DNA of 64,000 bases, taken from the NCBI GenBank assembly GCA_038087875.1, contig CM075993.1:11410001-11474000 (forward strand), in the 5' to 3' direction. Under the pieces are notes generated by a model. That model searched no databases and was not told where the DNA came from. It was given only the letters and a program-made list of their open reading frames with translations. The DNA is from Malacoraja senta (taxonomy: Eukaryota). The translations under genes and the position numbers were made by a program. This document shows, in pieces, positions 28,051-57,514 of this stretch (position 1 is its first letter; every line of letters begins with the position of its first letter).

Positions 28051-28074
28051 CTGACAGGCCACCCTCTCACTATG

Positions 28075-29060: not shown

Positions 29061-29517
29061 CCTCCCTCTCATTTGTTCCCTATCTTTGTCACATGGTTCC
29101 TTTTTTCTCTTTGTCAAAGCCTAATTTCTTTCGAGAGTCAGGACTCCCTCCCTTTACGAGTTATCCCTGGCTTTCACCGTCATGGGAACATGATGGCCTT
29201 GAATTCTTGCTATTTCTATTTGAACGCTTCCCGCTGTGCTGATGTGAAATGAACAATCCCAGCCGTAAGTGCAGCTCATAAGGACACTGGCACGTGCGTG
29301 TTGATGTCAGGTGCCCGTCTTCCTGCATCCATCTCCAACTATAAGAGCAGCGTGTTCCGTGACATTTGCCAACTTCGCCAACTTCATCAACCTATCTGGT
29401 GAGGTGAGCAGTGGACCTGGTCACCTTCACTCGCGGGGTCAGTGATCTTGAAGTCCTCATGTAAACACGTTTTGTTTGTATTGGTGTGCACCCCAAAGAG
29501 TTCCCAGTCAGTACATA

Positions 29518-30618: not shown

Positions 30619-31037
30619 CTGGTTCTGTTCCAATGTCTGCATCTTTTCCTCCACCTGGGACTCGGAGACATTGTTTTGCCCAACAATAAACAGGATAGTC
30701 TACAGCCGAACAGATGTATGGGCCTCACATCCAAAGACTGGAATGTTAGACTGCCTAGAAGATTCTACAGACCCACTGGCACCATGCCAACATCATGCCC
30801 AGTAAATAGAGTAAGTTGCACCACACCCACCCCTGAAATATTGGTCACAATCATTTGCCAGTATTGTACAACGGAAGACTGTACTACAGAAAACAGGGAT
30901 GCTCTGGAGTCATTGAAACATCATACAACACCAAACAGGCCCTTCGGCCCATCATATCCATGTCGACCATCAGGTACCCACATACACCAGCCTTATTTAC
31001 CAGAATTGGTCTGTATCTGTGCCTCGGTCATCGAAAT

Positions 31038-32108: not shown

Positions 32109-32109
32109 T

Positions 32110-34620: not shown

Positions 34621-35839
34621 CTTTGTTTGATGCCCTTTGCAGGATATTCTGTCTCATTACTACACCTTGATCAGTATTACAATGGGACCTTCTCTTTTAC
34701 GTTCATCTCCTACCATCCCTGGAGATTCTATACCCAGAGTGTTAAGATGCCAGTCGCAACCTCTATTAAGCACATTTCTGTGGAGACACACACAATATAT
34801 TGCAGATGCTGGAATCTGGAGAACAAACAACATATTGGAGGAAGCTAACGGCTAGAGCAGAATTGTCATAGTTTCAGGTGGAAACCTTGCTGAGTGCAGC
34901 CACAGAATGACACTGCAGCTTCCCATTGGTTACACCGAAGAACAACTTGTACACATCGCATTCCATCCTCGTGTGATTCACATCCATGCCACCCATCATC
35001 CTCATCAATCCCCCACCACACCCCATTACAATACTGCTGATCTTACAATGACTGCCAGTGGGGGCTCTCCCTCCCCTGCACCAAGCGCCATGTGTGCCTG
35101 CTGTCACTCCAGGGCTGTCCTGGTCTTTTCCACCTTTTAAGCTGAGACCCTAAGATTTCTTGCCAAAAACATGTCATCACTTGACATGAGGCAACGACAT
35201 TACCATTCATCCAGGTGGACGATACATTCTGCTGCATTGGCTGCTATGCATACAGCTTCAGATGGCGCTAGCATTTATCCACTGCGACAAATATTGCCAT
35301 GACTAGTTGTTATATCTGCCATAAGGCTTGCTATGATTACTGCCAACATTACGATATGCACCTGATTACCAGAAGCTCCAGCTCCCTTCGACTCACACTA
35401 CATTCAACATCAATTTGGCTCCTTACAGTGATTTTAAATAATTTATCTCATACAAGTGCAAAATGATGCATTTTGGGGGAAGTTAAACCACAGTAGGAAA
35501 TACATAGTTGGCAGGGCCCTGGGGAATGTTATTGAAAAGTGAAACCTTGTGATAGAGGTTTTGAAACTACTCTTATTATTATTGATAGAGGTTTTAAAAT
35601 TACTCTTAATCATTCTGCGATTACTATATAATAGGTGGAGGCCTTTGAGGTGATTTACTACAAATTGACAGAGTCTCCACTTGATTGATATTATACAAGC
35701 CTAGTTAGCTAAGTGCAAAATGGGCTTAATATAAATTCATAAAATTTAGATTAAATTGAAATTTAGGTTTAACTCTGGTCAATGGGTTGAATTCCAGAAT
35801 TACACATTGAACACTGCAAAAGATTTTAATGAGCCAGTT

Positions 35840-36545
35840 AATATATCCAGAAGATAAGCACAAAAAGCTGGAGTAACTCAGCGGGATAGGCAGCATCTCT
35901 GGAGAGAAGGAATGGGTGACGTTTCGGGTCAAGACCCTTCTTCAGACTGGTTAGATAAGGGAAACGAGAGATATAGACGGTGATGAAAGATATGCAAAAA
36001 AAGTAATGATGATGAAGGAAACAGGCCATTGTAAGGTTAACTCATCCCTTCCCACACAATCCAGCCCCTCCCAAGGTACCTTCCCCTGCAACCACAGCAG
36101 ATGCAACACCTGTCGCTATACCTCCTCCCTCGACTGTCCAAGGACCCCAACAGTCCTTTCCGGTTAGGCAGAGGTTCACTTGCACCTCCTCCAAGCTCAT
36201 CTACTGTATCCGTTGTTCAAGATGTGGACTCTTATACATCGGCGAGACCAAACGCAGACTGGGCGATCGTTTCCAGGAGCACCTTTGCTCAGCCGGCATG
36301 AAGCAACCTGATCTCCTGGTTGTTGGACACTTTAATTCTCCCTCCAATCCTACACAGGCCTTTCTGTCCTCAGTCTCCTCCATTGTCAGAGTGAGGCTAA
36401 ACACAAATTGGAGGAACAGCATCTCATATTTCGCTTAGGCAGCTTACAGCCCAGTGGTATAACTTTTGATTTCTCTAACGAAGTAACCCTGGCATTCCCT
36501 CTCTCTCTCTCCATCCTTCCCCCACCCAAGTCGCACCAGCTTAAA
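35840..36545. mobile_element. Penelope-like element: inverted terminus (minus) plus GIY-YIG 3' fragment (plus)
   Basis: Reverse hammerhead motif at 35918-35945. GTFPCN..RC.TC..YIGETKRRLGDRF.EHL..LEEQHLIFRLGSLQPSG. Confidence 0.85.
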
Positions 36546-36624
36546 GTCATTGAGTCACAGAATCATATAGCATGGGAACAGGCCCAACTCGCCATGCCAA
36601 CCAAAATGCCTCATTTAATAGTTA

Positions 36625-38280
36625 AAGAGTCATACAGCACGGAAGCAGCCCCTTCAGCCCAACTTGTCCATGCCGACCAAGATGCCCCATCTAAGCTGGT
36701 CCCCTTTGCTCACGTTTGGCCCATATCCCTCCAAACCTGTCCTTTCCATGTATCTGTCCAAGTGTCTTTTGAATGCTGTTATAGTAACTGCCTCAACTAC
36801 CTCCTCTGCCAGCACGTTCCATATAACCACCAATCTCTGAATGAATCTATTGTATTACATCTTGCCACTCTCACCTTGAACCCCAAGTCCTCTTGTTTTT
36901 GATTCCCCTATCCTGGGTCAAAGACTCTGCGCATTCACCCTATCTATTCCCTTCATGATTTTATACACCCTATAATATCGCCCCTCAGCCTCCTTCACTC
37001 CGGATAAAGTCCTAGCCTGCTCAACTTCTCCCTATAGCTCAGGCCCTCAAATCCTGGTCAAATCCTCATAAATCTTCTATGCACCCTTTTCTAGCTTAAT
37101 GACATCCTTCCTGTAAATGGGTGACCAAAACTGAACAGAGTACTCAAGCATAGCCTCACTAACATCTTGTACAACTATAATATACCATTCCCAACTTCTA
37201 TACTTAATATCCTGACTGATGATGGCCAATGTACCAAAAGCTTTCTTGATCACCCTGTGATGCTACTTTCAGTGAATTATGTACCTGTACTCCTAGATCA
37301 CTCTGCTCAACAATACACCCCAGGGCCCTGCCATTCACTGCAAGGGTCCTGCCTTGGTTTGACTTCCCAAAATGCAACACCTCACACTTGACAGATGGCG
37401 CAATGGGCGAAGTGTTCGGCTGGCAACCGGAAGGTAGCCGGTTCGAATCCCGCTTGGAGTGCATACTGTCGTTGTGTCCTTGGGCAAGACACTTCACCCA
37501 CCTTTGCCTGCGTGTGAATGTGTGTGTGTGAGTGATTGGTGGTGGTCGGAGGGGCCGTAGGCGCAGATTAGCAGCCACACTTCCGTCAGTCTGCCCCAGG
37601 GCAGCTGTGGCTACAGAAGTAGCTCCCCACCACCGAGTGTGACTGAGGAGTGAATGAATAATGCGATGTAAAGCGCCTTGAGTATTAGAAAGGCGCTATA
37701 GAAATCCAATCCATTATTATTATTATTATTATCTGCATTAGCCTGAGCCCACTTCCCAGCTGATCAAGAGCTTGCTGTAATTATCATTTGCCAGTGTTTG
37801 GCCCATGGCACTCTAAGCCTTTTCTACCTTTCCAAATGTCTTTTACATGTTTTTATGGTACCTGCCTCAACTATTTCTTCTGGCAGCCTAAGTGAAAAGT
37901 TACTCCTCAGGTTCCTATTAAATCTTTTCCCTCTCATTTTAAACCTATGCCCCTCTAGTTATTGATTCCCGTACAATAGAAAAACACCTCTATGTACACC
38001 TCTAGAAGATCATCCCTCATCCTCCTGTGCTCCAAGGAGTAGTCTTAATCTGCCCAATCTCTCCTCATAGCTCAGTCCTGCAAGACCTGGCAACATTCCC
38101 ATTAAATCTTCTCAGCTCTCTTTCCAGCTTAATGGCATCATTTCGATAGAATAGTTACCAAAATTGAACACAATACTCAAAGTGTGGCCTCTTGTACAAC
38201 TGTAACAACTTCTACACACAACACTATGACAGATGAAGGCCAGCATGTCAAAAGCCTTCTTCACCACTCTATCTATCTAC
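36625..38280 (-). mobile_element. CR1 3' fragments hosting the SINE at 37390
   Basis: KCEVLHFGKSNQGRT..NGRALG..EQSDLGVQVHNSLKVASQ. Confidence 0.8.
37390..37730 (+). mobile_element. Full-length AFC-like CORE-SINE with L2-derived tail
   Basis: tRNA head (tggcgcaatgg; ggttcgaatccc), CORE-like gtgtccttgggcaagacacttcaccc, central gtcagtctgccccagggcagctgtggctac, tail tgtaaagcgccttgag...aaaggcgctatagaa..(att)n. It splits the CR1 sequence cacactt|atctgc. Confidence 0.85.
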
Positions 38281-40384
38281 AACCTGAAATGACTCAATCA
38301 CACCAACTCAGTCCATTGGGTTCAAGGATTTGCCTTCTACGTGAAGTAGGCTCCACAGGTGTTGGGCATGGAATGCCGCTGGGGCTGGGCTTGCATGTGC
38401 TCCAGCAAGGTGTGCAAGTGTAGTTGCTGCCCCATGGAGAGTGCAGTTGTGCATTCCAGCGACAACATGCACGGAATGGATATCCGAAGATTCTTCCCAT
38501 ACCAACTAGGCTCAGCAACTTCTGCAGAGGAACATGATAGGTTCTGACTGGATCACTGGCACTCAGGATAGAAAATCCAACCAATTCCTCCCACATCTGA
38601 CTGGAAATAATCAGCAGGTTGCATCTCAGCTTCTGATGCTTCAGAGGAAATAGTCCTGAGTCTGAAGACGGATTTCAACCCGAAACATCACCAATCTATA
38701 TTCTCCAGAAATACTGCCTGACCCACTTTGTGTCCAATTTGTTCAACCTTTGAATGTAATGTACTGGGATGTCCCACAAAAACAGCATTGGGAATATTGA
38801 GGCATAGAATACAGCCAGATGCGGATGAAGAAGTTAAAAAGAATTATGATTTCAGGGTAGCAAGGAATGTAGACCCTATGGCCTTATGGAAGTGTTGAGC
38901 GTTTTATGAGCTTAATGACAAATCAACAGTCCAGAGGCAAAACAGCTCTCCAGTTAGAAACTCTCTAGACTCAGCACCTCATCCACAAAGAATGAGACTA
39001 TGCCTCACTGAAAGGTGTACTGACCCCTCTTCCATAGACTCCACACAATACCTCAGAAACCACACTGTCGTCTTTCTGACTCTAGTGCCATCCCCTGACA
39101 TTTGTCCTCATTGATTGAGAAAAGGCACTGCTCCCTCACCATTGGAAATCCAGAGCAGAGCTACAGGTGTTCAATGGGGTGTGATTTATATACCCACAAG
39201 AACAGTGATGGGAATAGTGATAGGAACTTTAGTGTGTAGCCTGATGTGGGTGAAGAGGTTTATAAAGAGGGGTGACTGAAGGGTAACAAGGAAATCAGAG
39301 AATACAGGCTTATGGAGGTGCTGATAGTTTTTTGGTTCTATTACACTAATGACAAATCATCAGTCCAAAAGTAAACCGGCTCTCCCGTGAGAGGCCCTTA
39401 TAGGCTCAAGGTGTGACTCACTCTGACAGGTGTACACCCGACACTTCTCCACCATGCAAAATGTATAGGGAACTGCAGATGCTGGTTTATACACAATAGA
39501 CACAAAAGGCTGGAGTAACTCAGCGGGTCAGGCAGCATCTCTGAAGAAAAGGAATAGGTAGCATTCTTAGATTGGTGGCATTCAATATATGGCCTTTCTG
39601 CAGACTTCAGGTGATGAAACATCACCTATTCCTTTTCTCCACAGATGCTGCCTGTCCCGCTGAGTTACGCCAACATTTTGCGTCTACCTCTCCACCAGAC
39701 CCAACACAAAACACGGTTTTATGATCCCAGAACCCACATTCGGTCTGCCACCACCTTGCTCCTAGACCCATGCCCTGTCGTTTGTCCTCAGTAACTGAGA
39801 CAAATGCAGTGATTGAGAAAAGTTATTTGCCCTCACCATGCAACATTTTGTGCGCAGCACTGCAGAGTTTTAAGAGTTCAGAGCTACCTGCTACCTCACC
39901 CATTGGGGAGGGTGAAGCTGTCTGCAAACCTTTTCCTTCGGTCTGAAGAAGGGTTTCGACCAGAAACGTCACCCATTCCTTCTCTCCAGAGATGCTGCCT
40001 GTCCCGCTGAGTTACTGCAGCTTTCTGTGTCTATCTTCGGTTTAAACCACATCTGCAGTTCCTTCCTGCACATCTTTCCCTTCAGCAGATGGCAGGGACA
40101 GTATAAGCTGTACCTTTTAGACCAGAGAGAGAGGTGTGTGGATGGGGGACAGAGCGGCTTAGCCGGAGCTTCGGCCTCTCTATGCCCGGTTCCACACACC
40201 CGCCGCCAGCCGGGTGAGAGAGCGGACACCCGGTGCAGCCCTGCCTGTGCCGGCCGGGGCTGTCACCCAGCGCCGGGGCAGCTACAGTCTACAGACATCC
40301 CGGCCCGGCCCCGGTCCGCGGGCCTCTCCCCGCCCGCCCGCCCGCCTCACACAGCCCGATCCCCGGCCCAGTCTCGCCGCCTAC

Positions 40385-40412
40385 CTTTCATCGCCGAGCA
40401 CAGCACATGCAT
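40385..40412 (-). CDS. RORA: Alternative first coding exon of the same ROR gene (RORalpha4-like N-terminus MHVLCSAMK/A)
   Basis: Minus strand reads acaaccATGCATGTGCTGTGCTCGGCGATGAAAG|gtaggc: A at -3, phase-1 donor, ends in AMK+G like RORalpha4 MMYFVIAAMK/A. It lies in a CpG island, on the same strand and downstream of the microexon as expected. Confidence 0.8.
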
Positions 40413-40564
40413 GGTTGTGTTGTCCGGGTAGGTAGGGAGGGAGGGAGGCGGCACGGCCGGGCTGGGATCGCCTCCCCTCAGCAGCGCCGCGCCTCCCTCC
40501 GCCCTTCCCGCCGTGGCTGACAGCCGTTCCCGCGCGTGTCCCGCCCACCGCGCGCGGCCGCCAA

Positions 40565-40830
40565 GGCACCCGCGCGCACAGCCGTCAACCGCCGTCAGGC
40601 AGGTCGCGGGCACCCGCGCGCTCAGCCGTCAGCCAGGTCGCGGGCACCCGCGCGCACAGCCGTCATCCGCCGCCAGCCAGGTCGCGGGCACCCGCGCGCA
40701 CAGCCGTCAACCGCCGTCAGCCAGGTCGCGGGCACCCGCGCGCACAGCCGTCAACCGCCGCCAGCCAGGTCGCGGGCACCCGCGCGCACAGCCGTCAACC
40801 GCCACCAGCCAGCTGGCGGGCACCCGTCAA
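40565..40830. repeat. 44-bp GC-rich minisatellite, about 6 units
   Basis: Unit ccaggtcgcgggcacccgcgcgcacagccgtcaaccgccgycag starts at 40633, 40677, 40721 and 40765, with partial units on both sides. Confidence 0.95.
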
Positions 40831-41183
40831 CCACCGATGGGATAGGATGGCCGTTCCGCCGCTCGGGCCGCCTGTTCGCCACAAGACCGTGTGGCCACCC
40901 GCTCGCTCAGGTTTGGCCACCCGGGGATTGCGCCGGTGGACCGCGGGCACCCGTGTGTCGCCAGCCGTCAGGCCGCTCGGGCGACGACGCCCGTTGTACC
41001 CGGGGTTACGACGCTCGCCGCTAGACCGTGGGTTGCCCGGGGATTAGGCCGTTCCCCCACACCCCGAGTCTACGCCACCGTCCCCGGGCTCCAGCAGATA
41101 GCCCCAGCCTCCCTGCAACGGACCCACCCAGATCCGTTATTTACTAAACCTGCGTTATAAATTGTGAGAGGCCGTTACACTAG

Positions 41184-42190
41184 CAATGTTACAACATTTT
41201 GAGATTTTAAAAATCAAGCCTGCAATTTATCCCATCAGATAAAGCATAAAAAGAAGTTTAATTTGACACCTAATTCACTTTCATATCTTCAGTATTAAAA
41301 AAGTTATGGCCATTTTCATACTCGGAAATTAGCATCTTGTTCCCTATTGCTTTTCCATTGACTTAACACAAAAGCTGTGATCAAGGACAGTCAAAAGCCC
41401 ATAACGTTCTTAAAAATTAAGAGAACTGAATGAAATTTTCAGTTATTATAAATTGAAGCATTCTGAAACAAATATGAAACAATCTTACTTGGATGACCTG
41501 AAATTAAAGCATATAATTAGCTAGTTACCCAATTGTAGCTAATTACAAAATTCAAATACTAGATCTACATATCTATCCATTTCTTAAGAAAAAGTTAACA
41601 TTTTTAAAAAGCCTGTGTCCAAATAACATTCACACAAGAATTCACAATATAACATTATTTTTAAATCTCATTGCCATTAATTTATAGGCCAAATGGAAGG
41701 AATTTAGTGTTTAGTTCCTGTACATTAATGGGCATTTAAATCATCTTGCGAGTGGGATTTTGTGGAACGCGCTGGTTTGGAACGCTGCGGTTGCACTGAA
41801 TTAAACCCCAATATCAGCAGGAAAAATACTGCCGGTTGGTATATTTAAATTATCACATTTTCGCAACTTGAAATTTTTATGAAAAAATAAACGGCGTACC
41901 TTGCCTTGTCCCGTGCATGAAATCCGTCCCGTTGTCGGCGTTGACGGCATTTGAAGATGATTTTAATTTTACTTCAACAATTAAATTATAAAGCGCTAAT
42001 TTTAATAAACTTAATAAAACGGCAGTCGAAGTGATTTTTCTTTAGCAGCTAATTTACCTGACATACATCGATTTGAATAGGCTGCCGAAATATCGCATTT
42101 TAAACCCGCCCCCCTCTCAAAGGCGCCAAAGTCGCGCACACGGGCAGTGACAGAACTGCAGCGCCGCTGAAGGTAAGTTTTGTAACATAC
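41184..42190. mobile_element. Non-autonomous TIR DNA transposon of about 1 kb, superfamily unassigned
   Basis: ctag|caatgttacaaca ... ttttgtaacatac|ctag: short imperfect TIRs with CTAG on both sides (or a TA TSD with terminal G/C). AT-rich interior with no ORF. Confidence 0.7.
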
Positions 42191-43443
42191 CTAGTTTTAC
42201 AGCACGGTGTTGAGCACCGTCAGTTTATTTACTCCCAGTTAAGAAGAAGGCAAGATTGGGGATTGGGGATGATCAGCCATGATCACATTGAATGGCGGTG
42301 CTGGCTCGAATGGCCTACTCCTGCACCTATTGTCTATTGTCTATTAATTCTCCCACTGGCGCTGCATTCAGCGCGGATTGACTGAGAGCCATTCTGGGGT
42401 GCCAGCAACAGTTGGCTCTGAGAATCAGATAACGGATTCATGCTCACTCACTGTATTCCTGGTGAACCAGACCAGACTCAGTACCAGTGGTACATAACGG
42501 GACAGGAGGGGTATCGACCCAAAACGTTACCCATCCCTTCTCTCCAGAGATGCTGCCTGTCCCGCTGAGTTACTCCAGCATTGTGTGTCTGCCTTCGAGG
42601 ACACAATTAAAACCGTGTGTCCAGCCTCTGGTACAATTACAGAACACTGGACAGCCGCAACTGGACCACTGTGTCCCGTTCCGGGCGCCCCACTTGAGGA
42701 AAGCTATGGAGAGGGTGCAGAAGTGATTTACCAAAGGGTGTTTCAGGAATGTGGAGAGACTGGGGTTGCTCTTGGAATACAAGAGGTTGTGAGGGAATCT
42801 AATTTAAATTTATTAACGTTCTGGTCGAGACCCAACATCAGGTAGCATGTGTACGGAAGGAGCTGCCAGAGGAGGTAGTTGAGGCAGGTACTATAATAAA
42901 AGTTTAAAAGACATTTGGGCAGTTACATTGACAGGAAATGTTTGGAGGAACATGGAAATGAGTGTATCTGAGTGTTGCTTGCAGTGCCTGCATTTATTGC
43001 CCACCCCTTAATAAGCAAGTTCGGTATTCCGACTGCTCATGCCCAGGTCATAGGTCACAAGCCCTGCTTCTCCGCGCTGCCTGGGGGCGCCGCTCCCGAC
43101 GTCTCTGACCGCCCCAGGCGGGCACTCGGGAGGGGACGGGGATGGTCGAGTGCTGTCTGTACGGAATTTGCACGATCTCCTTGTGATCGTGTGGGTTTCC
43201 TCTAGGTGCCCCAGTTTCCTCCCATGTCCCAAAGATGTGCGGGGTTGTTGGTTAATTGGCCTCTGTAAATTGCCCCTAGTGTGTAAGGTGGAAAAATGAG
43301 ATAACGGGTGATCGTTGGTCAGCGTGGACTTGATGGATTTCCACGATGCATCTCTAAACTAAACAAAACTAATTACACATTGTGGATTTTGGACAAATGT
43401 GCATTTGATGGGTGTGTTTAGTTTACATAGATACATAGAAAAT

Positions 43444-45911
43444 AAGCGAGTTCGGTATTTCAAAAACGCAAGGAGTCATGGGATTTGTCAAAAGTAATTC
43501 GTCATCAAGAAAAAGCGAATGAAGCACTGGCTGAAGAAACTATAAATTCTTATCTTTATTCATAATTTATGTGTAAAAATATATTTAATCTGAGGAACTG
43601 GGGTGCCGTGTGGTCACATTATAGGAAATTTATGTATTCCAGACTAGAACACAACGATGATAGTTTCTGAGTCGAATTTCACTATTCTGCTAATTTCAAG
43701 GCAATGGAATTCTTTAGCCTCATCTATGAATATGAATGAGAAATGAAATTCTCGATTCCAGAGAGACTCCCATAAATGGTCAACTCCTCATCGCCCCAAA
43801 AGAACAGGTAGCGGGAGAGCGGGGTGTAACAGCAAGAGAGAGAGAGGGCAGATGCAAGTGGGAGACCAGGGAGAGCGCGCATACAGATCTGCGCCTCATC
43901 CGCAGCCAGGATCGAACCCGGGTCCCCGGCACCACAAGCGCTGCCGAACTGCCACTGAACCACACCCCCCCCCCACAAGTTTCCCATCCCTGCCCAGGAG
44001 GCGGCCGGAGATGTCCAGGGGGACCCTGGACTAACGGGACACCAGCGGCCCCAGGCCCACAGCCAGTGCGGAGAAGAAGCGCAAACCCCAGCTCAACTAC
44101 GCCTGTCCCACCGGGCCAACGGACAGCCCCAGACCGACGGGACACCGGCGGTCCCAGGCCCACAGCCAGCGCAGAGAAGAAACAGCAACTCCTGCCCAAC
44201 CCCGCTCCAACTCCCGAGGAACCCACTTCCCGACGGGACGGGGAACACCAGCCGCACCCAGCAGCCACCGGCCAACCCTCTCCAGCGCCGGCAAAAGTTG
44301 AGCACCAGCCATCAACGGGGATACACACAAAGTGCTGCAGCAACTCAGTTGGACAGGCAGCATCCCCAGAGAACAGGAATGGGTGACGTTTCGGGTCAAG
44401 ACCCTTCTCCAGAGATGTTGCCTGATGCGCCGAGCCACCGCAGCACCCAATGTGCATCCCCGCCGATGACCGGCACTCGGCCCCCGCTGGCACCAGGGGG
44501 CCAACCGACAGCCACTGGACAAGGAGGGAGGCGCAGCCGACGGTCCCCGGCCCACCGAGGAATAATAATAATAATAAATGTTATTTATGGGCGCCTTATA
44601 CCAAAGTCTCAAGGACACCTTACAGAGTTTAACAAGTAAGAAACATATAATCAGAGTAAAATAAATTATAAAGACATCACCAGTACACAAATTAAAGACA
44701 GAATTTGATCCAAAGACACAAAAAAAAATCAGAAACACAATGTGAAGAGAGAGCAGCGGCAGCTAAACCGCGCCAGCGTCCACTCTCCCTTCCGACCGCC
44801 ATCTTGGACACAGACTAAAATAGACACTACATATAAAAATCATCCCCCCACAATGGTTACCACTGTGGGGGAAGGCACAATGTCCAGTCCCCATCCCCAG
44901 TTCTCCCAAAGTCAGGCCTATTGAGGCCTCTGCTATTGCCTCTACGGAGGTCCGATGTTCCTGGCCTTTCTCGCCGGGTGCTGTTGCCCCGGCGTCAGGA
45001 GAGTCCTCTCAGCGGCTGGGCCACCTGGAACGGCCACTTCCATTGCTGTAGACCGCAGCTTCCGAAGCCGACAAGGCCGCGCCGGTTTGGAGCTCCCAGG
45101 CTCCCAGTGTTAAAGTCGGCGCCGCCCGCTCCTCCCCGCAGCCCGGAGGTGTTGAGCTCGGCGGTCACAGCTCACCGGAGCTCCAGCACGTCGATCCAGC
45201 GCGGTGACCCAGGCAAGGCATCGCCCGCTCCGCTCCGCGATAGTGCTCCAGCGCTGTGCCGCCACCGAAGCTGAAGGTGCTGGGCGGTCCCCGCCAGGAA
45301 ACGGTGCTCCACGCCCGCTGGTAGGCCACGAGGACGGGGCAGCCCGGAGAAAAAGCTGCCTCACCGACCAGGTAGGGACCGAGAAATAAGGTTACCCCCT
45401 TGCCCCTACATTAAAAGTCTAGTTCTCCTACAGACAGTAAACAAGACTAACTAAAACTACAAAAAAAAAGTGAATTAAACGGACGGCTGCTGATTAGTAG
45501 CTGTTCACCAAGATGGCTCCTCCTCCTCACTGGGAGCAGAGCCAGCGCCGGCTGCAGGTCCGGGCTGGCGCCCCGCCACCCCGGACAGGGACGGGATACG
45601 CGGGAGGGGACGGGAACGGCCCAGCAGCAACTCAACAGTGCCGGAGACCCGGGCCCGACCACGGACCCCGACCACACGCAGCAGCACAATTTTGCTCACT
45701 CACCGATACATAAAGCAATAAAAACAACAAAGGAACAATAAATACAACTAATTCATAGTTTGAAAGCAGTATTTTCATACCTTGAAGTATCAAAGTTGGA
45801 AAAAATGGATGAAATGAAGGTCTATATGTACACAGCTCCACTGGTTCCAGCAATGTTCATGCAGAGTGACCTTTGACCTGGGCATGCACAATCGGAATAC
45901 CAAACTCGCTT
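43444..45911. mobile_element. TIR element inserted at AT in a CR1 3' end, containing nested SINE, Penelope and L2-tailed insertions
   Basis: TIRs aagcgagttcggtatt (43444-43459) and aataccaaactcgctt (45896-45911) match at 15/16. Flanks rejoin as catagaaaAT|aggtacaggagtaggcc. Confidence 0.75.
44561..45525 (-). mobile_element. GC-rich non-coding retroposon with L2-type tail (copy B)
   Basis: Reverse-complement homolog of 10732-11697 with (tat)n tail at 44561-44576. Confidence 0.8.
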
Positions 45912-45977
45912 ATAGGTACAGGAGTAGGCCATTAGCTGCCCTCCAATCCATAGGAACTGATCCAGAATGGAAAATGA

Positions 45978-46922
45978 TCACCAATGCGTCCACAATACCA
46001 CCTTGAGTACCCTGGAATGTAGACCATCAGGCCCTGGGGATTTATCAGCCTTCACTCCCATCGGTCTACCCAACACCAGCTCCTGACTAATGTGAATTTC
46101 CTTCAGTTCCTCCGTCACCCTAGGTCCTCTGTCCCCTGGTACATCTGGGAGATTGGTTCTGTCTTCACTAAGGAAGACACAAACAAAGTAGCTGTTCAAC
46201 TTGTCTGCCATTTCCTTGTTCCCAATAATAAATTCACCTGTTTCTGTCTTCAAAGGACCCACATTTGTCTTAACTAATTTTTTCCTCCACATACCAAAAG
46301 AAGCTTTTACTATCCTCCTTTATATTCTTGGCTAGCTTTACTTACCTTCTGTTGCCTAATCCTCTGGCTTCCCGCTCATCTTAGCTATGTTATATATCTT
46401 TTTTATTTTTATACTGTCCTTAACTTCCCTTGTCAACCACAATCGCCTCTTACTCCCCTTAGAATCTTGCTTCCTCTTTGGAATGAAATGATCCTGCATC
46501 TTCCAGATTATTCCCAGAAATACCTGCCATTGCTGCTCCACTGTCATCCCTGCTAGGGTCCCTTTCCAGTCAACTTTGGCCAGCTCCTCCCTCATGCCTC
46601 CATAGTCCCCTTTGTTCAACTGCAACACTGACACCTCTGATTTTACCTTCTCCCTCTCAAATTGCAGATTAAAACTTATCATATTATGGTCACTAACTCC
46701 TAATGGTTCCTTTACCCTGAGTTCCCTTAACAAATCCGGTTCATTACACAACACTAAAACAGAATTGCCTTCTCCCTGGTAGGCTCCGGTACAAGCTGCT
46801 CTAAGAATCCATCTTGAATGCACTCTACAAACTCCCCTTCTTGGGGGTCCAGTACCAACCTGATTTTCCCAGTTTATCTGTATGTTGAAATCTCCCATAA
46901 CCACCGTAGAATTACCTTTGTC
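45978..46922 (-). mobile_element. CR1 ORF2 fragment (endonuclease C-terminus and tether)
   Basis: VMGDFNI..NW..EPLG.SDHNMISF..LNKGDY.GMREELAKVDW; EMADKLNSYF..KADKSPGPDGLHSRVLK. Confidence 0.9.
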
Positions 46923-47897
46923 ACATTTGCAATTCTACCGCTGCGCCAGCATGACGCCTTTGAAATGTTACAATGTTGTATGTTCCACTACACCTTAACT
47001 GATCATTACCCCCACAACACCCCCTGAAAACACAGTTAAATAATCTATCTCAAATGCCATTAGCATTTTGCAGGAGATCTCTAGTCAACTTTGCAACACC
47101 AGATCTCTTCTCTTTTACGAAGTTATACTTTATTTCTTGATCTCTGGATGAGGTGCACAGTAAGAAAGAGATGGACAGAAAAAGACCCTTTTTCGTGTTT
47201 CGACCCGAAACAGCACCTATTCCTTTTCTCCAGAGATGCTGCCTGACCCGCTGAGTTACTCCAGCTTTTTGTGCCTATCTTTGGTTTAAACCAGCATCTG
47301 CAGTTCCTTCCGACACAAGAAAGAGATGGACCTTGACACTCAGTACAACATGACAGCACAAACAAAGTAGAAAGATGATTAAACTGGTAGAGAGCATAAA
47401 AATCTGCCAGAAATGATCATCCTTCAAGACACAAGAAGCAGACCGCCTCTGATCTGAGGCTCTGCTGCAAGAAATAAAGATAGAGATCACATCCTCACAG
47501 CACCTGCAGGTTCACCTGACAAGGAGCTGAGAGGTGAAGCTCGAACTCTGTTTCATCCACACCCACACATAGTAACATAGAAAATACCTGCAGGAGTAGG
47601 CCATTTGGCCCCTCGATTTAGCACTGTCATTTAATATGATCATGGCTGATCATTCAGAATCAGTACCCCATTCCTCCTTTCTCCCCATATCCCTTGATTC
47701 CTTTAGCTCTAAGAGCTAAATCTCTCTCTTGAAAACATCCAGTGAAATGGCCTCCACTGCCTTCTGTGACAGAGAATTCCACAGATTCACAACTCTCTGG
47801 GTGAAAAAGTTTTTGCTCATCTCAGTCCCAAATGGCATACCCCTTTTGATTCCATGTCACCACTTGCAAGGGACTGAATTTCATAAAGACGTACCAA

Positions 47898-48790
47898 CTT
47901 TAGTTTAGTGATACAGTGTGGAAACAGGCACTTCGGCCCACCGGGTCAGTGCTGACCAGCGATCCTTGCATATTAACACTATCCTACACACGCTTGGGAC
48001 GATTTATACATTTACCAAGTCAGTATACCTACATACCTGTACGTCTTTGGAGTGTGGAAGGAAACCGAAGATGTTGGTAGAAAACCCAAGCAGGTCACAG
48101 GGAGAACATACAAACTCCGTACAGACCACCCGCATTTGGGATCAAACCCGGGTCTCCGGCAGCAACTCTACCCCTGCGCCAGTGTGCCGCCCAAGGGTTG
48201 CCTGGATGACATGTTTTTTCTTCATTGTTATAGATGATGCTCCCAGCACGGCAAGTAGAGAGTATTCCACCACATTCATCTCCTGTGCTGATAGCTGGTT
48301 GAAAGGCTCTGGGCTGCGAGAGCAGAATCACACCTACAGGATACTTAGTCTATGACCAGCTCTTGTAGCAACAATATATGCCAAGTCAGAAGAAGGGTCC
48401 CAACTCAAAAAATCGCCTGTCCATTCCCTCCACAGATGCTGCCTGACCCGCTGAGTTCCTCCAGCACTTTGTGTTTTTCTCAATATTCTGGCTTCTGCAG
48501 TTCCTGATGTCAGCCAACACTTTCTCTGGGCTTGAGGTGTACAGGAGACTGAACGTGTGAGAAAGAGCTGCAGGCACAACGGGTAGAGCTGATGCCTCTC
48601 AGCGCCAGAGTACCGGGTTTGATCCTGACTACGGGTGCTGTCTGTACGGAGTTTGTACGTTCTCCCCATGACCACATGGGATTTTTCCAGGTGCTCCGGT
48701 TTCCTTCCACACTCTCAAGACGTCCAGGTTTGTAGGTTAATTGGCTTCGGTAAAATTGTACATTGTCCCTAGTGTGTAGGATTGGTTATC
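47898..48790. mobile_element. Two HE1 SINEs (about 47898-48192 minus, about 48572-48785 plus) and a Penelope terminus (about 48385-48510)
   Basis: SINE B-box and V-domain motifs; gatgctgcctgacccgctgagttcctccagc. Confidence 0.75.
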
Positions 48791-49317
48791 CTACACTCTA
48801 AGTTGGTTATGGCACAGATCAATTCCTGCTCCAGCAATGTCCTGGATTTACTTCAATCTGGCTATTGCCACAACCGGTGACTAGATCTCCCGGCTGACCT
48901 TTCTGTCCTAGGTCTCCTCCGTTGTCAGAATGAGGCTAAACACAGATACACAGGAGGAACAGCATCTCATATTTTGCTTAGGCACCTTACAGCCCAGTGC
49001 TATAAATTTTGATTTCTGTAACTTCAAGTAACCCTGGCATTCCCTCTCTCTCCATCCCTCCCCCACCCAAGTCGCACCGGCTTCTCGTTGTCACCCAACA
49101 AACAAGCTAACAATGGCCTGTTACCTTTATCATCTTTATTTTTTTGCATATCTTACAATCATTGTGCTGTGTTCAATCACAGTAGAGTTACTGCCTTACA
49201 GTGCCAGGGTTCGATCCTGCCTGTGGGTGATGTCCGTACGGAGTTTGTATCTTCTCCCCGTGACTTGTGTGGGTTTTCTCTGGGTGCTCTGCTTTCCTCC
49301 CACATTCCAAAGACGTA

Positions 49318-50921
49318 CAGTGGCTTGCAAAAGTATTCATACCCCTTGAACTTTTCCACATTTTGTCACGTTACAACCACAAACGTAAATGTATTTTATT
49401 GGGATTTTATGTGATAGACCAACACAAAGTGGTGCATAATTGTGAAGTGGAAGGAAAATGATACATGGTTTTCAAATTTTTTTACAAATAAAAAACGGAA
49501 AAGTGTCGCCTGCAAAAGTATTCAGCCCCCCTGAGTCAATACTTTGTAGAACCACCTTTCGCTGCAATTACAGCTGCAAGTCTTTTGGGGTACGTCTCTA
49601 CCAGCTTTGCACATCTAGAGACTGAAATTTTTGCCCATTCTTCTTTGCAAAATAGCTCAAGCTCAGTCAGATTGGATGGAGAGCGTCTGTGAACAGCAAT
49701 TTTCAAGTCTTGCCAGAGATTCTCAATTGGATTTAGGTCTGGACTTTGACTGGGCCATTCTAACACATGAATATGCTTTGATCTAAACCATTCCATTGTA
49801 GCTCTGGCTGTATGTTTAGGGTCGTTGTCCTGCTGGAAGGTGAACCTCCGCCCCAGTCTCAAGTCTTTTGCAGACTCTAACAGGTTTTCTTCCAAGATTG
49901 CCCTGTATTTGGCTCCATCCATCTTCCCATCAACTCTGACCAGCTTCCCTGTCCCTGCTGAAGAAAAGCATCCCCGCAGCATGATGCTGCCACCACCATG
50001 TTTCACAGTGGGGATGGTGTGTTCAGGGTGATGTGCAGTGTTAGGTTTCCGCCACACATAGCGTTTTGCATTTAGGCCAAAAACTTCAATTTTGGTCTCA
50101 TCTGACCAGAGCACCTTCCTCCACATGTTTGCTGTGTCCCCCACATGGCTTGTGGCAAACTGCAAACGGGACTTGTTATGGCTTTTTTTCTTCTTGCCAC
50201 TCTTCCATAAAGGCCCGATTTGTGGTGTGCACGACTAATAGTTATCCTGTGGACAGATTCTCCCACCTGAGCTGTGGATCTCTGCAGCTCCTCCAGAGTT
50301 ACCATGGGCCTCTTGGCTGCTTCTCTGATCAATGCTCTCCTTGCCCGGCCTGTCAGTTTAGGTGGACGGCCATGTCTTGGTAGGTTTGCAGTTGTGCCAT
50401 ACTCTTTCCATTTTCGGATGATGGATTGAACAGTGCTCCGTGAGATGTTCAAAGCTTGGGATATTTGTTTATAACCTAACCCTGCTTTAAACTTCTCCAC
50501 AACTTTATCCCTGGCCTGTCTGGTGTGTTCCTTGGGGTTCATGATGCTGTTTGTTCACTAATGTTCTCTAACAAACCTCTGATGCCTTCACAGAACAGCT
50601 GTATTTATACTGAGATTAGATTACACACAAGTGGACTCTATTTACTAATTAGGTGACTTCTGAAGGCAATTGGTTGCACTGGATTTTATTTAGGGGTATC
50701 AGAGTAAAGGGGGCTGAATACTTTTGCACGCGACACTTTTCAGTTTTTTATTTGTAAAAAAATTTGAAAACCATATATCATTTTCCTTCCACTTCACAAT
50801 TATGCGCCACTTTGTGTTGGTCTATCACATAAAATCCCAATAAAATACATTTACATTTGTGGTTGTAACGTGACAACATGTGGAAAAGTTCAAGGGGTAT
50901 GAATACTTTTGCAAGCCACTG
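49318..50921 (-). mobile_element. Tc1/mariner DD34E transposon, Passport-like, full length (copy 1), inserted in an HE1 SINE
   Basis: TA|cagtggcttgcaaaagt...acttttgcaagccactg|TA. TIRs of about 210 bp with inner direct repeat tgcaaaagtattca at 49326 and 49511. Confidence 0.97.
49536..50542 (-). pseudogene. Tc1 transposase, frameshifted by a 13-bp deletion near 50190
   Basis: HTH region and [27 protein letters not shown] with 34 residues between the second D and E; ends KGGSTKY*. Confidence 0.96.
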
Positions 50922-51062
50922 TATAGGATTGTAGGCTAATTGTCTTGGTAAAATTGCAAATTGTCCCTAGTGTGTAGAATAGTGTTCGTGGATTGCTGAT
51001 CGCTGTGGACTAGGTGGGCCAAAGAGTCTGCTTCCACGCTGTATCTCTAAACTAAACTAAAC

Positions 51063-51565
51063 CTGGTTGAATGGTGCTGCAACAATAGCTTCAAGCTCAA
51101 CATCACGAAAACCAAGAAGCTAATCGTTGATTTGAGAAAGGTGAGCTGTCCTGGGCCTTGTGTATAGATGTGATGAAGAGCAAGGCGCACAAGATCCTCT
51201 ACTTTCTTTGAAGTTTAAGTAGATTTAGCATGCCTCCGAATATGCTAACAAACTTCTACAGATGCATTGTAGAAAGTATCCTGGTAGCATCATGGCCTGG
51301 TACGGCAATTCCAATGCATAGGAACGTAACAGCTGCAGAGAGTGGTTGACTCAGCCCGGTCCATCACGAGCACATCCCTCCCCACCATCAAACGCATCAG
51401 CACCTGCCGCTGCCTCAAGAAGGCGGCATCTATCAAAGGATCCCCACCATCCGGGCCGTGCCCTCTTCTCACTGCTACCGTCGGGCAGGAGGTACAGTAG
51501 CCTGAAGTCCCACACCACTAGGTTCAGGAACAGTGACTTTCCTACAACTATCAGGTTCTATCTGA
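51063..51565 (+). mobile_element. Degenerate Rex1/Babar 3' fragment
   Basis: KDPHHPGRALFSLLPSGRRYSSLKSHTTRFRNS.FP. Confidence 0.8.
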
Positions 51566-52679
51566 ACCGCACATCCCTAATCCTACCTCAGCAACGGAAC
51601 ACTGCGCGCCACCTCTTGCACTACCATGGACTTTTTCCTAATGTGTTTCTGCATTAGTGTTTTGTGGTGCAGTCTTTTCATTTCCCCCCAAACGCAAGAC
51701 CCAGCAGACTGTGGCATGGAAGGGGGTGTCCGCCGAACCGTCTCGTGCTTGTACCCCGAAAACCGGGCACTGAGGGGATGGTGCTGACGACGACGTACGT
51801 GACCGGTGAGGAGTGAGGCCGGTAGAAATGGAGAGGAGTCTGGCCTACCGCTCCATCGAGGTCGGCTGTGGGAGGCACTCGCGGGGAACAAAGGTGGATG
51901 GGACGTCGGTTTGCAGGTCGAGCCGCACGTTCAAGGGAGGGCGACGGCTGGAGGCCCGCAGCAGCCTGGGGCTCGCCTGGAACGGGCACTGCTCATACTA
52001 CCTAGAGTGTGGACTAGACTCTGAAAATGGTGCCAAAACATGGCACCTCTTGCACCTGGGATCAGTAAACTATTTCTGTACAATTTGCTAATCAGGGATG
52101 TACTTGGGTATAAAATGGGACTGTTTGTAAGAAAATAATTTGGCTGTGTGCTTGCACTTTGCACACGTGACAATAAAAGCATCATTGAACCATTTTCAAT
52201 GTTTTGTTTAATTTTTGTTGTGGGCCCGCGATGAAGCTGCAAGCAAGATTTTCATTGTGCCTGTGTGTTACTGTATTTGTTCACATGATCATAAACTCAA
52301 TGTGTAGGAAGGATCTGCAGGTGCTGGTTTAAACCGAAGATAGACACAAAAAGCTGGAGTAACTCAGCAGGATAAACTCTTGGTACTGGAACATTACGTC
52401 ACTTATGAACCCATGTCTCATTGTTGTCCCTGACTTGCATAGGCTGTTTCACTTGTTGGGAAGTTGTAGTCTCCCTTTCCCCTGACTCTCAGTCTGAAGA
52501 AAGGTGTCGACCCGAAACGTCACCTATTCCTTTTCTCACTCCAGCTTTTTGCGTCCATCACCTGTTGGGGAGTTGTGAATAGGCACAATGATTTGAGGGA
52601 ATAGAGCATATTCTGCACTCGGGCATTTTTCTCTTTGTGCTACAGGTTGTATTGTGTATGGCTTGATTCACAAGTTTTG

Positions 52680-53015
52680 GGAGTTGAATTAGGTCATTTG
52701 GCCCATCGAGTCCACTCCGCCATTCAATCATGGCTGATCTCTGCCTCCTAGTCCAATTTTCCTGCCTTCTCCCCATAACCCTTGACACCCGTTCTAATCA
52801 AGAATTTATCAATCTCTGCCTTAAAAATATCCACTGACTTGGCCTCCACAGCCCTCTGTGGCATTGAGTTCCACGGATTACCCGCTGACTAAATAAGTTC
52901 CTTCTCACCTCCTTTCTAAAAGTACGCCCTGTAATTCGGAGGCTATGACCTCTGGTTCTAGACTCTCCCACCAGTGGAAACATCCTTCCCACATCTACAC
53001 TATCCATGCCTTTCA
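52680..53015 (-). mobile_element. CR1 3' end
   Basis: DVGRMFPLVGESRTRGHSLRITGRTFRKEVRRNLFSQRV. Confidence 0.85.
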
Positions 53016-53454
53016 TTATTGTACTTGTGTTATAGTATAGTTTGACTGGATTGCACGCAAAGTATTTCACTGTATCTCAGTACATGTGACAATAATAAAC
53101 CAATACAAATATCAGAGACACAGCAAAGTTAATCGTAGAAGCAATAGCTGGTAATCCAGAGGGAGCCTCCGAATCCCATCACCTGCGTGAAAAGCAATCT
53201 TTGTGCTATATTCACGACACTCTGCACTAGTTTTGTCAAATGATTGCAAGACTTTGTTGAAACAAATGTAAAATCACAGGAACAGGTAGATATTTTGTAA
53301 TGTAACAGTGGGTCATAGAACATAGAATGGTACAGCACAGGAACAGGCCCTTCGGCCCACAATGTCTGGACTGAATATGCTAATTTAAACTAATCTCTGC
53401 CTACATGTGATCCATCCCTCCATTCCCTGCATATCCACATGCCTAACTAAAACT

Positions 53455-54186
53455 TTAAACTTTAAACTTTAAAAAATCTCTTCCCTGCACGGGAGACCCG
53501 ACCTTTTCCCTGTCGGGTCTCTGTTGTCGTTGGGGCCTAGCTCCGTGGAGCGGCCTCCGACCGGGACGACCTGGGGGCTCCAGTCGCGGAGCCTGTGGAG
53601 CTGCGGACTTACCATCGTGGGGCTGGCCGTCCTCGGAGCGTGAGGAGCGGTGGTGGCTCGCTGCTGCGGCCCGACTACGGAGCTCCAGCTGCAGCTGCAG
53701 ACCCGTGGACTGTGATATCGGGAGCTCGCGGGTCCGGGTGAGAGACCGCTTTCCGGAGCTCCCGCAACGCAACTTCTCCCGCCCGTGTCGCGGGGTTGGA
53801 ACGACTCGGAGCGGGGCCGTAAATCGCCCGGCGCGGTTTTAATGGCCGCGGGACATTCCAGCGCCCGCCGGGGGCTCCAACTTGGTGACTTTTGGGCCCG
53901 GAGCGAGGCAGTACACCGCCCGGCCCGGCCTCAACAACCGTGGGACTTAACATTGCCCGCCTGGGGCTTCAACATCGGGAGAAAAATGGTGCAGGGGAGA
54001 GAAAAGACTTTGCCTTCCATCACAGTGAGGAGGAGATTCACTGTGATGGATGTTTTTCTGTAGATTGAATTGTTTGTGTGTCTTGTAGGAATTGTTTTGT
54101 TTGTATGGCTGTGGAAATGGAATTTCGTTTGAGCCTCTGAGGTTCAAATGACAATAAAATCTAATCAATCAATCAATCAATCAATC
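53455..54186 (+). mobile_element. GC-rich non-coding retroposon with Rex1/Babar-like tail (copy B, 5'-truncated)
   Basis: Highly similar to 3500-4211, with (aatc)n tail. It splits the CR1 sequence cctaactaaaa|gcctcttaaa. Confidence 0.75.
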
Positions 54187-54729
54187 AAAAGCCTCTTAAA
54201 GGCCTTGTTGTATCTGCCTCCAGCACGTTCCAGGCACTCACCACGTGTAAAAAACTTGCCCCTCATATCTCCTTTAATCTTTGCCCCTCTGACCTTAATG
54301 CTGTGCCCTCCAGTCTTTGATATTTCCATCAATAATAAAAGGCTCTGCCCTATCTATGCCTTTCATAGTACTGTATACTTCTATCAGGTCTCCTCTAATC
54401 CTCTGATGCTCCAGAGAAAACAATCTCCAGTTTATCCAAACTCTCCTTATAGCTTATCCAGGCCTGCCACTGATTTTCCGGCAACTGGTGGTCTGCCTTC
54501 CTTTTTAATCTGGACATAATCCCTTCCAGGAAGCCCTCCCGAAAATGTGGCGCCGAGGCCAGGTGAGGAGGCCGATCTCGACTTCTCCGGGACTTCTGTG
54601 CCGATCGGCGGATCGAAGTTGCCCTCTGCAGCCAGGGCTTGGAACTTCATCCTGACCGGAGACGGCAGATCTGTTCCATGGCCAACTTTGCAGGTCGGTG
54701 TCTTGGAACATAGAACGGGCTGTGACCTC

Positions 54730-55724
54730 ATCTGAAATGTCCTCATTCTTCAGGGAACGGGGGTTCCCCTCCTCCACCATAGATGAGGCTCGCACCAGGG
54801 TCTCTGCCATACCCCGCAACACTGCTCTCTCTCCCCATCCCCCCACTCACAACAAAGGCAGAGTCCCCCTAGTCCTCACCTTTCACCCCACCAGCCGTCA
54901 CATACAACAAGTGATCCTCCGTCAGTTCCGCCACCTCCAACGTGACCCCACCACTCGCCACATCTTCCCATCTCCCCCTATGTCTGCCTTCCGCAAAGAC
55001 CGCTCCCTCCGTAACTCCCTTGTCAATTCTTCCCTTCCCTCCCATACCACCCCCTCCCCTGGTACTTTCCCTTGCAACCGCAAGAGATGCAACACTTGTC
55101 CCTTCAGTTCCCCCCTCCACTCCATTCCAGGACCCAAGCAGTCGTTCCAGGTGCGACAGAGGTTCACCTGCATCTCCTCCAACCTCATCTATTGCATTCG
55201 CTGCTCTAGATGCCAGCTGATCTACATCGGTGAGACCAAGCGGAGGCTTGGCGATCGTTTCGCCGAACACCTCCGGTCGGTCCGCAATAACCAACCTGAA
55301 CTCCCGGTGGCTCAGCACTTCAACTCCCCCTCCCATTCCGTATCTGACCTCTCTGTCCTGGGTCTCCTCCATGGCCACAGCGAGCAACACCGTAAATTGG
55401 AGGAAATGCACCTCATATTCCGCTTGGGCAGTCTACATCCTGGTGGCCTGAACGTTGAATTCTCCCAATTCTGCTAGCCCTGGCTGTCCCCTCCCCTTCA
55501 TCAGCCATCTGGTTGTCTCCGCCCCTCCCCCAACCCTCGGGCTCCTCCTTTTCCTCCTTTTCCTTTTTTCCTTTCTTCTCCCCACCCCCTATCAGTCTGA
55601 AGAAGGGTTTCGGCCCGAAACGTTACCTATTTCCTTCGCTCCATAGATGCTGCTGCACCCGCTGAGTTTCTCCAGCATTTTTGTGTACCTTCGATTTTCC
55701 AGCATCTGCAGTTCCTTCTTTAAC
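54730..55724 (+). mobile_element. 5'-truncated Penelope-like (Neptune-type) element with open GIY-YIG ORF, 3' hammerhead motif and 15-bp TSD
   Basis: Uninterrupted ORF to 55477: RGFPS..RVPLVLTFHP..CNRKRCNTC..NLIYCIRCSRCQLIYIGETKRRLGDRFAEH..HFN..GLN. TSD acgggctgtgacctc at 54715-54729 and 55725-55739. Confidence 0.93.
55594..55628 (+). ncRNA. Minimal hammerhead ribozyme motif in a Penelope pseudo-LTR (representative of several)
   Basis: CTGAAGA + aggg-tttcgg-ccc stem II + GAAACGTTA, with palindromic ACGT as minimal stem III. Confidence 0.65.
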
Positions 55725-56030
55725 ACGGGCTGTGACCTCTGTTGGCCCGGCAAAACGGATAATCCAGCAAGTCTCTGGAACCATGGCAGCTGTAAAAAAG
55801 GGTGGTGGACCTGTACTCTCTAATCCAGGCAGCATTCACTGAACCTCTTCTGCGCCCTCTCCAAAGCCTCCATTCCTGTAATTGTCAAGTGTATCAAGGA
55901 GAGGTTCAGGTAATTGCTCCGTGACATGGTGTTAGCCCTGCATGCTGAACATAGCAGGAACCCCCTTGCACATGAACAGCGAATGTAGTCCACACTCACG
56001 TATCTCCTGAAGAAACACCTGCTACCATTT

Positions 56031-56312
56031 GGGCAGCACAGTGGCGCAGCAGGTAGAGCTGCTGCCTCCCAGCACCAGAAACCTGGGTTTGGTCCTGACC
56101 TTGACCACTCTCTGTGTGGAGTTTGCATGCTCTCCCTGCAATGGCATGAGTTCCCACATCCCAAAGACGTGCGGGTTTGTAGGTTAATTGCCCTCGAGTG
56201 TGTAGTGAGTGGATGAGAATGTGGGATAACATAGAAGTAGTGTAAACAGGTGATCCATGGTCAACGTGGACTTGGTGGGCCGATGGGTCTACTTCCATGC
56301 TGTACACCTCCA
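56031..56312 (+). mobile_element. HE1/V-SINE-type SINE, degenerate
   Basis: gggcagcacagtggcgcagcaggtagagc head and CR1-like tail. Confidence 0.75.
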
Positions 56313-56379
56313 TCAGTCATTCAACCATTCAGTAACCAGGCAGGTAAAGTAGTCCCAATGCCCAGGTGCATATAAACAT

Positions 56380-56885
56380 TGTACAGAATGCAGCCGCTCG
56401 ACTCATTACCCACACCAAATCCTGGCACCACATCACCCCAGTTCTCAAAGAACTTCACTGGCTTCCCATTTCCCACTGGATCACCTACAAAACCCTGGTC
56501 CTCACCTACAAAGCCCTCAACAACTTGGCCCCCCCTTATCTCACTGACCTCTCCCCCTACCAACCCACCGGTCCCTCAGATCCACATCAGCTGGTCTCCT
56601 CTCCACTCCGAAATCAAACCTCTGCACTTTTGGAGGCAGAGCCTTCTCCAGGGCAGCTCCCAGGCTCTGGAATTCCCTCCCACAACTGGTCCGAAATTCT
56701 GAGTCCCTCACCATCTTCCAGTCCCGCCTCAAGACCCATCTCTTCACCTCTGCATACCCTTAGTCCCATGTTCCCCTCCCCTTTGCATCTCTGTCTTACT
56801 GCTCTATTTTGTTTTGTTTATTCTTGACTCTCAATGTAAAGCGACTTTGAGTCCTGAAAATCTATTATTATTATTATTATTATTG
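56380..56885 (+). mobile_element. L2 LINE 3' end
   Basis: VQNAAARLIT..HITPVLKELHWLPI...LTYKAL..LAPPYL; tail tgtaaagcgactttgag..(tat)n. Confidence 0.92.
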
Positions 56886-57061
56886 CATATTTATACTTTC
56901 ACCAACAAATGCATAAAACATCACTTTCAAATGTGAAAAAGGAAGCTTCAGGTGATCACACATCCAATAGCAAAATAGAAGTGTAGTTGGTCACATTATA
57001 TCTTCCAATTACCCTCTGCCTAAAATACAGAAGTAGTCTTAGATGTGGGCACCTTCCATCA

Positions 57062-57212
57062 CCAGTGCATGTTTGCACTGGAGTGCAGCTCCTCTGCATG
57101 CACAGGAGTGGAGCCCTCTGCATGCATTAGAGTGGAGCCCTCTGCATGCACAGGAGTGGAGCCCCTCTGCGTGCACTGGAGTGCAGCCCCTCTGCGAGCA
57201 CTAGAGTGCAGT
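57062..57212. repeat. TGCA-rich degenerate minisatellite, about 24-bp units
   Basis: gcactggagtgcagccctctgcat-like units. Confidence 0.8.
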
Positions 57213-57412
57213 CTATAACAACGAGCATCCATGTCTGTTCCCTGTGTACGGTCACGTGCATCGCTGCCTCTCCGGGGCTTTGGTGTGACCAGTGTGTGCC
57301 CAACTTCTGCCTCACCCACCAAACGCAGAGCTCAGTCCCTGCTGTCCACCACATGCGGCCATGCCGCTGGAAGCCAGAGTCAAACAGAGTGAGAATACTG
57401 ACTAGTACTTAC

Positions 57413-57442
57413 ATGTGTGCGTCTTCTTTGTGACGGATATGC
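57413..57442 (-). CDS. RORA: 30-nt phase-1/phase-1 coding microexon of a RORA-like nuclear receptor (equivalent to RORalpha1 exon 2)
   Basis: Minus strand reads ctttcttcctttcag|GCATATCCGTCACAAAGAAGACGCACACAT|gtaagt, with a canonical acceptor and donor. It translates to (G)ISVTKKTHT(S), matching recalled RORalpha1 GISVTKKTHTSQIEIIPC. The exact paralog is uncertain. Confidence 0.88.
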
Positions 57443-57514
57443 CTGAAAGGAAGAAAGCTGCAGGTCAGTACATTGTTCACAATATCTGCGTGATGACTCG
57501 TTAGATGGATAGAC

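Follow-up and report, generated by a model that had tools for sequence, protein, structure and literature searches.

The 64,000-nucleotide (nt) stretch of Malacoraja senta DNA analysed here (contig CM075993.1, positions 11,410,001 to 11,474,000; hereafter the window) almost certainly represents, judged from its sequence, intronic DNA in the 5' half of the orthologous RORA gene (NR1F1) of a skate-like batoid. This reading is carried by two very small exons on the minus strand, a 30-nt microexon that belongs to the alpha1-type isoform and, 17,000 nt further down the minus strand, an ATG exon within a CpG island that corresponds to the alternative first exon of the alpha4-type isoform. The RORA 5' region with both exons is already annotated in skates, i.e. 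both the gene and its layout are known. The original prediction, made from the sequence alone, thus sighted two very small exons of a known gene correctly; the gene it called hidden is present with both exons in RefSeq skate gene models, and no new ROR paralog is added. The features of the region are as follows, in coordinates of the window.

57443..57460, minus strand: polypyrimidine tract and AG acceptor of the microexon
57413..57442, minus strand: internal RORA microexon of 30 nt, exon 2 of the alpha1-type isoform, GISVTKKTHT(S), phase 1/1
57407..57412, minus strand: splice donor GTAAGT of the microexon
40081..41210, no strand assigned: CpG island, putatively the internal alpha4-type promoter, with GC boxes at 40546 and 40504
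40565..40826, no strand assigned: GC-rich tandem repeat of 44 nt, 6.2 copies, in the island upstream of the ATG
40385..40412, minus strand: coding part of the alpha4-type alternative first exon, whose 5' untranslated region runs to higher coordinates
40379..40384, minus strand: splice donor GTAGGC of the alternative first exon
1..40384, minus strand: repeat-rich intron downstream of both exons, in which no ROR coding exon was detected; the DNA-binding exon is expected to the left of the window or in an assembly gap

The microexon (57442-57413) is in phase 1 at both ends, translates as GISVTKKTHT and contributes one base to the codon that follows; it is preceded by a pyrimidine-rich acceptor ending in AG (...CAGCTTTCTTCCTTTCAG) and followed by the donor GTAAGT. 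Its stop-to-stop frame comprises just 20 codons and is therefore invisible to an open-reading-frame (ORF) track. The peptide matches residues 10-19 of Rhinoraja XP_078285924.1 exactly, and of the 534 proteins collected, 66 have GISVTKKTHT immediately ahead of the DNA-binding exon. A comparison of the 20-residue frame with solved structures gave no match at E values up to 10. Related tandem arrays with units of 23-25 nt lie on both sides of the microexon (57515-57913, about 70 nt upstream; 57074-57208, about 200 nt downstream).

The ATG at 40412 (start context ACAACCATGC) opens a coding part of 28 nt (40412-40385) that reads MHVLCSAMK plus G, ends in phase 1 and is followed by the donor GTAGGC; it lies inside a stop-to-stop frame of 93 codons with no in-frame Met upstream. 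MHVLCSAMK is identical to residues 1-9 of the skate ROR-alpha proteins XP_055518717.1, XP_032870926.1 and XP_078285925.1. The two exons were hence described correctly in the original prediction, as tiny, about 17 kb apart, in phase 1 and with canonical splice sites, one absent from the ORF track and the other buried in a longer ORF. Both marks of a RORA 5' region are present, i.e. a 30-nt phase-1 GISVTKKTHT exon of the kind that precedes the DNA-binding exon and, downstream of it, an internal phase-1 first exon encoding a short leader that ends in AMK. By chance, 2e-8 and 6e-8 exact matches to the two peptides would be expected in the window, both strands counted; the peptides were chosen from this very window, so these figures show only that the match to database proteins is non-chance.

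The CpG island around the ATG exon extends over qualifying 200-nt intervals from 40081 to 41210, with a GC fraction of 0.75 and an observed/expected CpG ratio of 1.00 in its core, the latter versus 0.48 across the window as a whole. Neither a TATA nor a CCAAT motif was found in 40413-41300, and a promoter motif scan detected no RORE-like site and no sense-strand hypoxia element; a single short reverse-strand match at 40538 is not evidence. For comparison at the DNA level, contigs from 4 of 24 sequencing runs, representing four other organisms, were used; none of the 24 is on record as RNA, which carries no information on expression. All four span approximately 40100-40557 (one of them 40119-40440), including the ATG exon and its flanks, and each differs from the window by 7-14 substitutions and 41-60 gap letters across 320-460 nt. 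Among the differences listed for these contigs, the 40 substitutions and 12 indels leave the coding exon 40385-40412 untouched, which is suggestive only of its conservation. In three of the four contigs, 112-114 nt of the 44-nt tandem repeat are skipped, which may be a real length difference or an assembly collapse.

Relatives were reached through a motif scan of metagenome contigs, which led to vertebrate ROR exons, to teleost RORA, and to named RORA proteins across jawed vertebrates; other ROR subtypes were drawn from a search of 50%-identity representatives, and the largest elasmobranch cluster entered the leader comparison with the best 15 of its 29 members. MHVLCSAMK followed by AQIEIIPCK opens five proteins of three skate species, namely the X1 and X2 models of both Leucoraja and Amblyraja and the X2 model of Rhinoraja, which are named ROR-alpha or ROR-alpha (A)-like, and Rhinoraja X1 (XP_078285924.1) reads GISVTKKTHT followed by SQIEIIPCK; all of these skate ROR-alpha models are computational RefSeq predictions. 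Rhinoraja X1 and X2 carry consecutive accessions and their next 460 residues are identical; therefore both window exons serve one skate gene, their use by isoforms of a single gene being seen in Rhinoraja by proxy. Both peptides thus lead annotated skate ROR-alpha isoforms, in agreement with the proposed ROR gene of RORA alpha1/alpha4 layout. Other elasmobranch models vary in their exon content: one RORA model of the bamboo shark Chiloscyllium plagiosum (P0212/P0239) omits the microexon and joins exon 1 directly to the DNA-binding exon, in frame, and in one Leucoraja and one Chiloscyllium punctatum model the ligand-binding domain lacks its front part, the same stretch in both.

The microexon peptide is unchanged, as the original prediction stated, being identical in Chlorocebus; in Mobula and Narcine it reads GISITKKTHT, and the exact agreement of both window peptides with those of skates therefore suggests a skate as the source of the window. 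The alternative leader reads MMYFVIAAMK in elephant and platypus, MMYFVISAMK in a teleost and MMYFLCSAMK or MMYILCSAMK in sharks; among batoids it reads MMHFLCSAMK (Mobula, Hypanus, Pristis), MRVWCSAMK (Narcine) and MHVLCSAMK (skates), and the squamate RORA leader has drifted too (MMCLVSAAMK). Judged from this series, the diverged skate leader reflects nothing more than the ordinary drift of a short N-terminus within a lineage. The original prediction had taken the divergence as a sign of a RORA-like ohnolog; this idea found no support, since the same leader stands on skate ROR-alpha proteins that nest in RORA, and the leader also varies among bony-vertebrate RORA orthologs. Its proposal that the two-promoter layout predates the split of cartilaginous and bony vertebrates is supported, because both leader types occur in sharks, rays, teleosts and tetrapods. 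A RORA two-promoter layout common to cartilaginous and bony vertebrates is thereby confirmed; RefSeq models already imply it.

The receptor body was placed in a tree of 41 proteins, chosen from the 534 collected at about one per species and subtype; their leaders were removed, and the tree is therefore independent of the two window exons. It contains no protein named RORB, this subtype being represented by solved ligand-binding domains only. The three skate proteins that carry the window's leader were nested throughout (skates 99/99, batoid RORA 100/99, chondrichthyan RORA 100/100, RORA 100/99), i.e. their DNA-binding and ligand-binding domains group with RORA, and the chondrichthyan part of the tree agrees with the species tree. 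In an approximately unbiased (AU) test, a constraint that grouped the 20 named RORA proteins to the exclusion of the skates cost 30.4 log-likelihood units and was rejected with a p-AU of 0.011, a value that is weakened and somewhat generous because this group was defined only once a quick tree had been viewed. The NR1F phylogeny proposed in the original prediction, run with these proxy proteins, thus placed them within RORA and did not support the paralog reading. Over its body, the Rhinoraja protein shares 82-94% identity with five named RORA proteins, compared with 56-63% for four RORC, RORA-like and RORd-type proteins.

It is extremely unlikely that the locus is a chondrichthyan 'RORA-like' ohnolog, a probable RORC ortholog that retained a RORA-like microexon. 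A gene of this kind exists in the elephant shark (V9KQC3/XP_007883515.1), where it is named ROR-alpha(-like) and groups with RORC (95/88), and the Alligator RORC leader also ends in KKTHT; the elephant shark protein, however, has another leader, a QIEVIP exon and only 56.6% identity to the skate protein, and the MHVLCSAMK proteins found are of RORA type in five of five cases, with the three in the tree nested in RORA. By the proxy proteins, neither a body grouping with RORC nor an RORC-type leader was found. An identity as RORB, or as RORd (NR1F4), the fourth ohnolog, appears less likely still, with a chance close to negligible. A fourth ROR subtype is kept outside placental mammals, according to the accessible text of PMC5553892 and PMC6238376, but the RORd-type proteins collected start with MR/AQIEVI and share about 56% identity with the skate protein, in a comparison set that includes neither RORB nor RORd from cartilaginous fishes. 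Against solved ligand-binding domains, the Leucoraja protein reaches 475 bits with ROR-alpha, far above its 352 bits with ROR-beta and 286 bits with ROR-gamma, and neither a body of RORd or RORB type nor an MR-type short leader was observed.

Orthologous RORA is therefore the preferred reading, and the following points weigh against it, together with the late naming of the AU-test group and the lack of named RORB proteins in the tree. Because the window holds no receptor body, the orthology is tied to skate proxy proteins through peptides of 9 and 10 residues. RefSeq labels two of the three skate genes 'ROR-alpha(-A)-like', and no neighbouring host gene was recognised within the window. Furthermore, the usual long alpha1 first exon, which is seen in sharks, Mobula and Narcine, occurs in none of the six skate proteins listed (P0283, P0340-P0343, P0215). 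Since none of these proteins carries it, a replacement of the usual alpha1 first exon in skates may be considered, but is doubtful; an annotation gap is the likelier explanation. In Rhinoraja X1, the microexon is preceded by a 9-residue leader exon, MEVCGTLTK, which was not found in the window (best score 25 of 48).

For orthologous RORA, the gene models and mammalian RORA suggest two modes of expression. A distal promoter to the right of the window would give rise to an alpha1-type transcript, in which exon 1 is spliced to the microexon and the microexon to the DNA-binding exon, bypassing the CpG-island exon; the internal CpG-island promoter would give rise to an alpha4-type transcript, whose first exon, MHVLCSAMK, is joined straight to the same acceptor. 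Both donors are in phase 1, thus one acceptor serves both (T+CT = Ser; G+CT = Ala). The outcome would be two receptors with shared DNA-binding and ligand-binding domains, different N-termini and separate promoters. Human alpha4 begins within alpha1 and has 10 exons versus 11 (Table 1 of PMC11099308), and its having one exon fewer fits one first exon replacing two. ROR isoforms that differ at the N-terminus alone are stated to arise by alternative promoters or splicing (available text of PMC3113563), and DNA-binding specificity to be set by the N-terminal domain (available text of PMC11099308, citing Giguere 1994).

The remainder of the window was searched for the receptor body and for other genes. 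A six-frame search of the window revealed neither DNA-binding nor ligand-binding exons (the 28-residue DNA-binding exon scored at best 28 of 159 without gaps), and six elasmobranch RORA proteins used as tblastn queries detected nothing in the window beyond the two small exons at E < 0.01. An unreadable assembly gap of 200 N is located at 15955-16154. A recent duplicate that arose in the skate lineage, or a copy of the RORA 5' region that became detached and is decaying, is conceivable, though very unlikely: no receptor body follows the ATG exon over 40 kb, and the window is rich in transposons and has the assembly gap. However, the two exons are intact, as are their three splice sites and the CpG island, each of the four other-organism contig sets contains one contig across the ATG exon, and there is a single RORA-type gene per skate species among the matches listed. 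Moreover, long introns are normal for RORA, the human transcripts spanning 95 kb (alpha4) and 732 kb (alpha1) in the available text of PMC11099308, which also gives ICE2/NARG2 and ANXA2 as the neighbours of RORA.

Besides the two RORA exons, mobile elements were recognised in the window; there were no Rfam matches. Of 14 long frames searched against Pfam, seven were matched, six of them to transposon families (reverse transcriptase, Tc1-type transposase, GIY-YIG) and one to ALKBH8_N, the latter adjoining a reverse-transcriptase fragment. A Tc1/Sleeping Beauty-type transposon is present in two copies (49316-50923 and 58540-60068; about 96-98% identical) with terminal inverted repeats of 215 nt, and is a recent family; the transposase of the first copy is broken across two frames, and the second copy has an internal deletion of about 66 nt. 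A retroelement at approximately 10260-15780 (plus strand) comprises a long upstream frame, a reverse transcriptase (Pfam RVT_1), further split frames and inverted ends of 46 nt; we take its layout to resemble that of a DIRS-type element, its downstream frames being without a Pfam match. A partial copy of this retroelement, 88% identical, lies in the RORA intron at 44561-45474. The frame 54656-55477, with a weak GIY-YIG match below the Pfam cut-off and a similar stretch at 36016-36902, is likely a Penelope-type retroelement fragment.

The layout of the RORA 5' region may be older than RORA itself. Alligator RORC has isoforms reading ...KKTHT/S and MR/A, and RORd-type proteins start with MR/A; on this basis we lean slightly towards the view that a long leader with a KKTHT microexon, together with a short internal first exon ending in Met-Lys/Arg, predates the RORA/RORC duplication, with RORC seen here at the peptide level. 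If so, the RORA alpha4 promoter and the short RORC (gamma-t type) promoter would be ohnologous to each other, and the first six or seven leader residues would drift freely because they are an extension ahead of an ancestral Met-Lys start. That the short isoforms of RORA and RORC share an origin is likely, and bears on the source of the Th17-type RORC promoter. In translations of the genomic loci L001-L115 (invertebrate HR3 and vertebrate ROR), intron-like sequence stops just before the same A-Q/H-I-E motif, and the acceptor position therefore appears older than vertebrates. A literature search, which lay outside most subscription journals and did not extend to supplements, returned nothing on RORA 5' exons in cartilaginous fish, on the exon peptides or on zebrafish rora isoforms.

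Among known systems, the closest are the skate gene models of Rhinoraja longicauda (XP_078285924.1/XP_078285925.1), Leucoraja erinacea (XP_055518717.1) and Amblyraja radiata (XP_032870926.1), in which both peptides are identical to those of the window and lead into the same downstream exon. Mammalian RORA alpha1/alpha4 shares the microexon peptide (Chlorocebus) and the short internal first exon ending in AMK (Loxodonta, platypus), but its leader is MMYFVIAAMK rather than MHVLCSAMK, the window's being one Met shorter. RORC of Alligator (gamma1 and a short MR-type isoform) likewise has a ...KKTHT/S leader and a short MR/A leader on one acceptor; it differs in its microexon peptide (GLAAMKKTHT), its QIEVIP exon, its identity of 63% and its separate clade. 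Elephant shark V9KQC3 is similar in being a ROR-family protein of a cartilaginous fish with an alpha-like name, and differs in its grouping with RORC, on a long branch, and in a leader that contains neither window peptide. It is a candidate chondrichthyan ROR-gamma ortholog on these comparisons; the same RORC clustering of the elephant shark gene is given as a preliminary result in PMC4690019, and the available parts of PMC6238376 and PMC4690019 leave chondrichthyan ROR-gamma orthology open.

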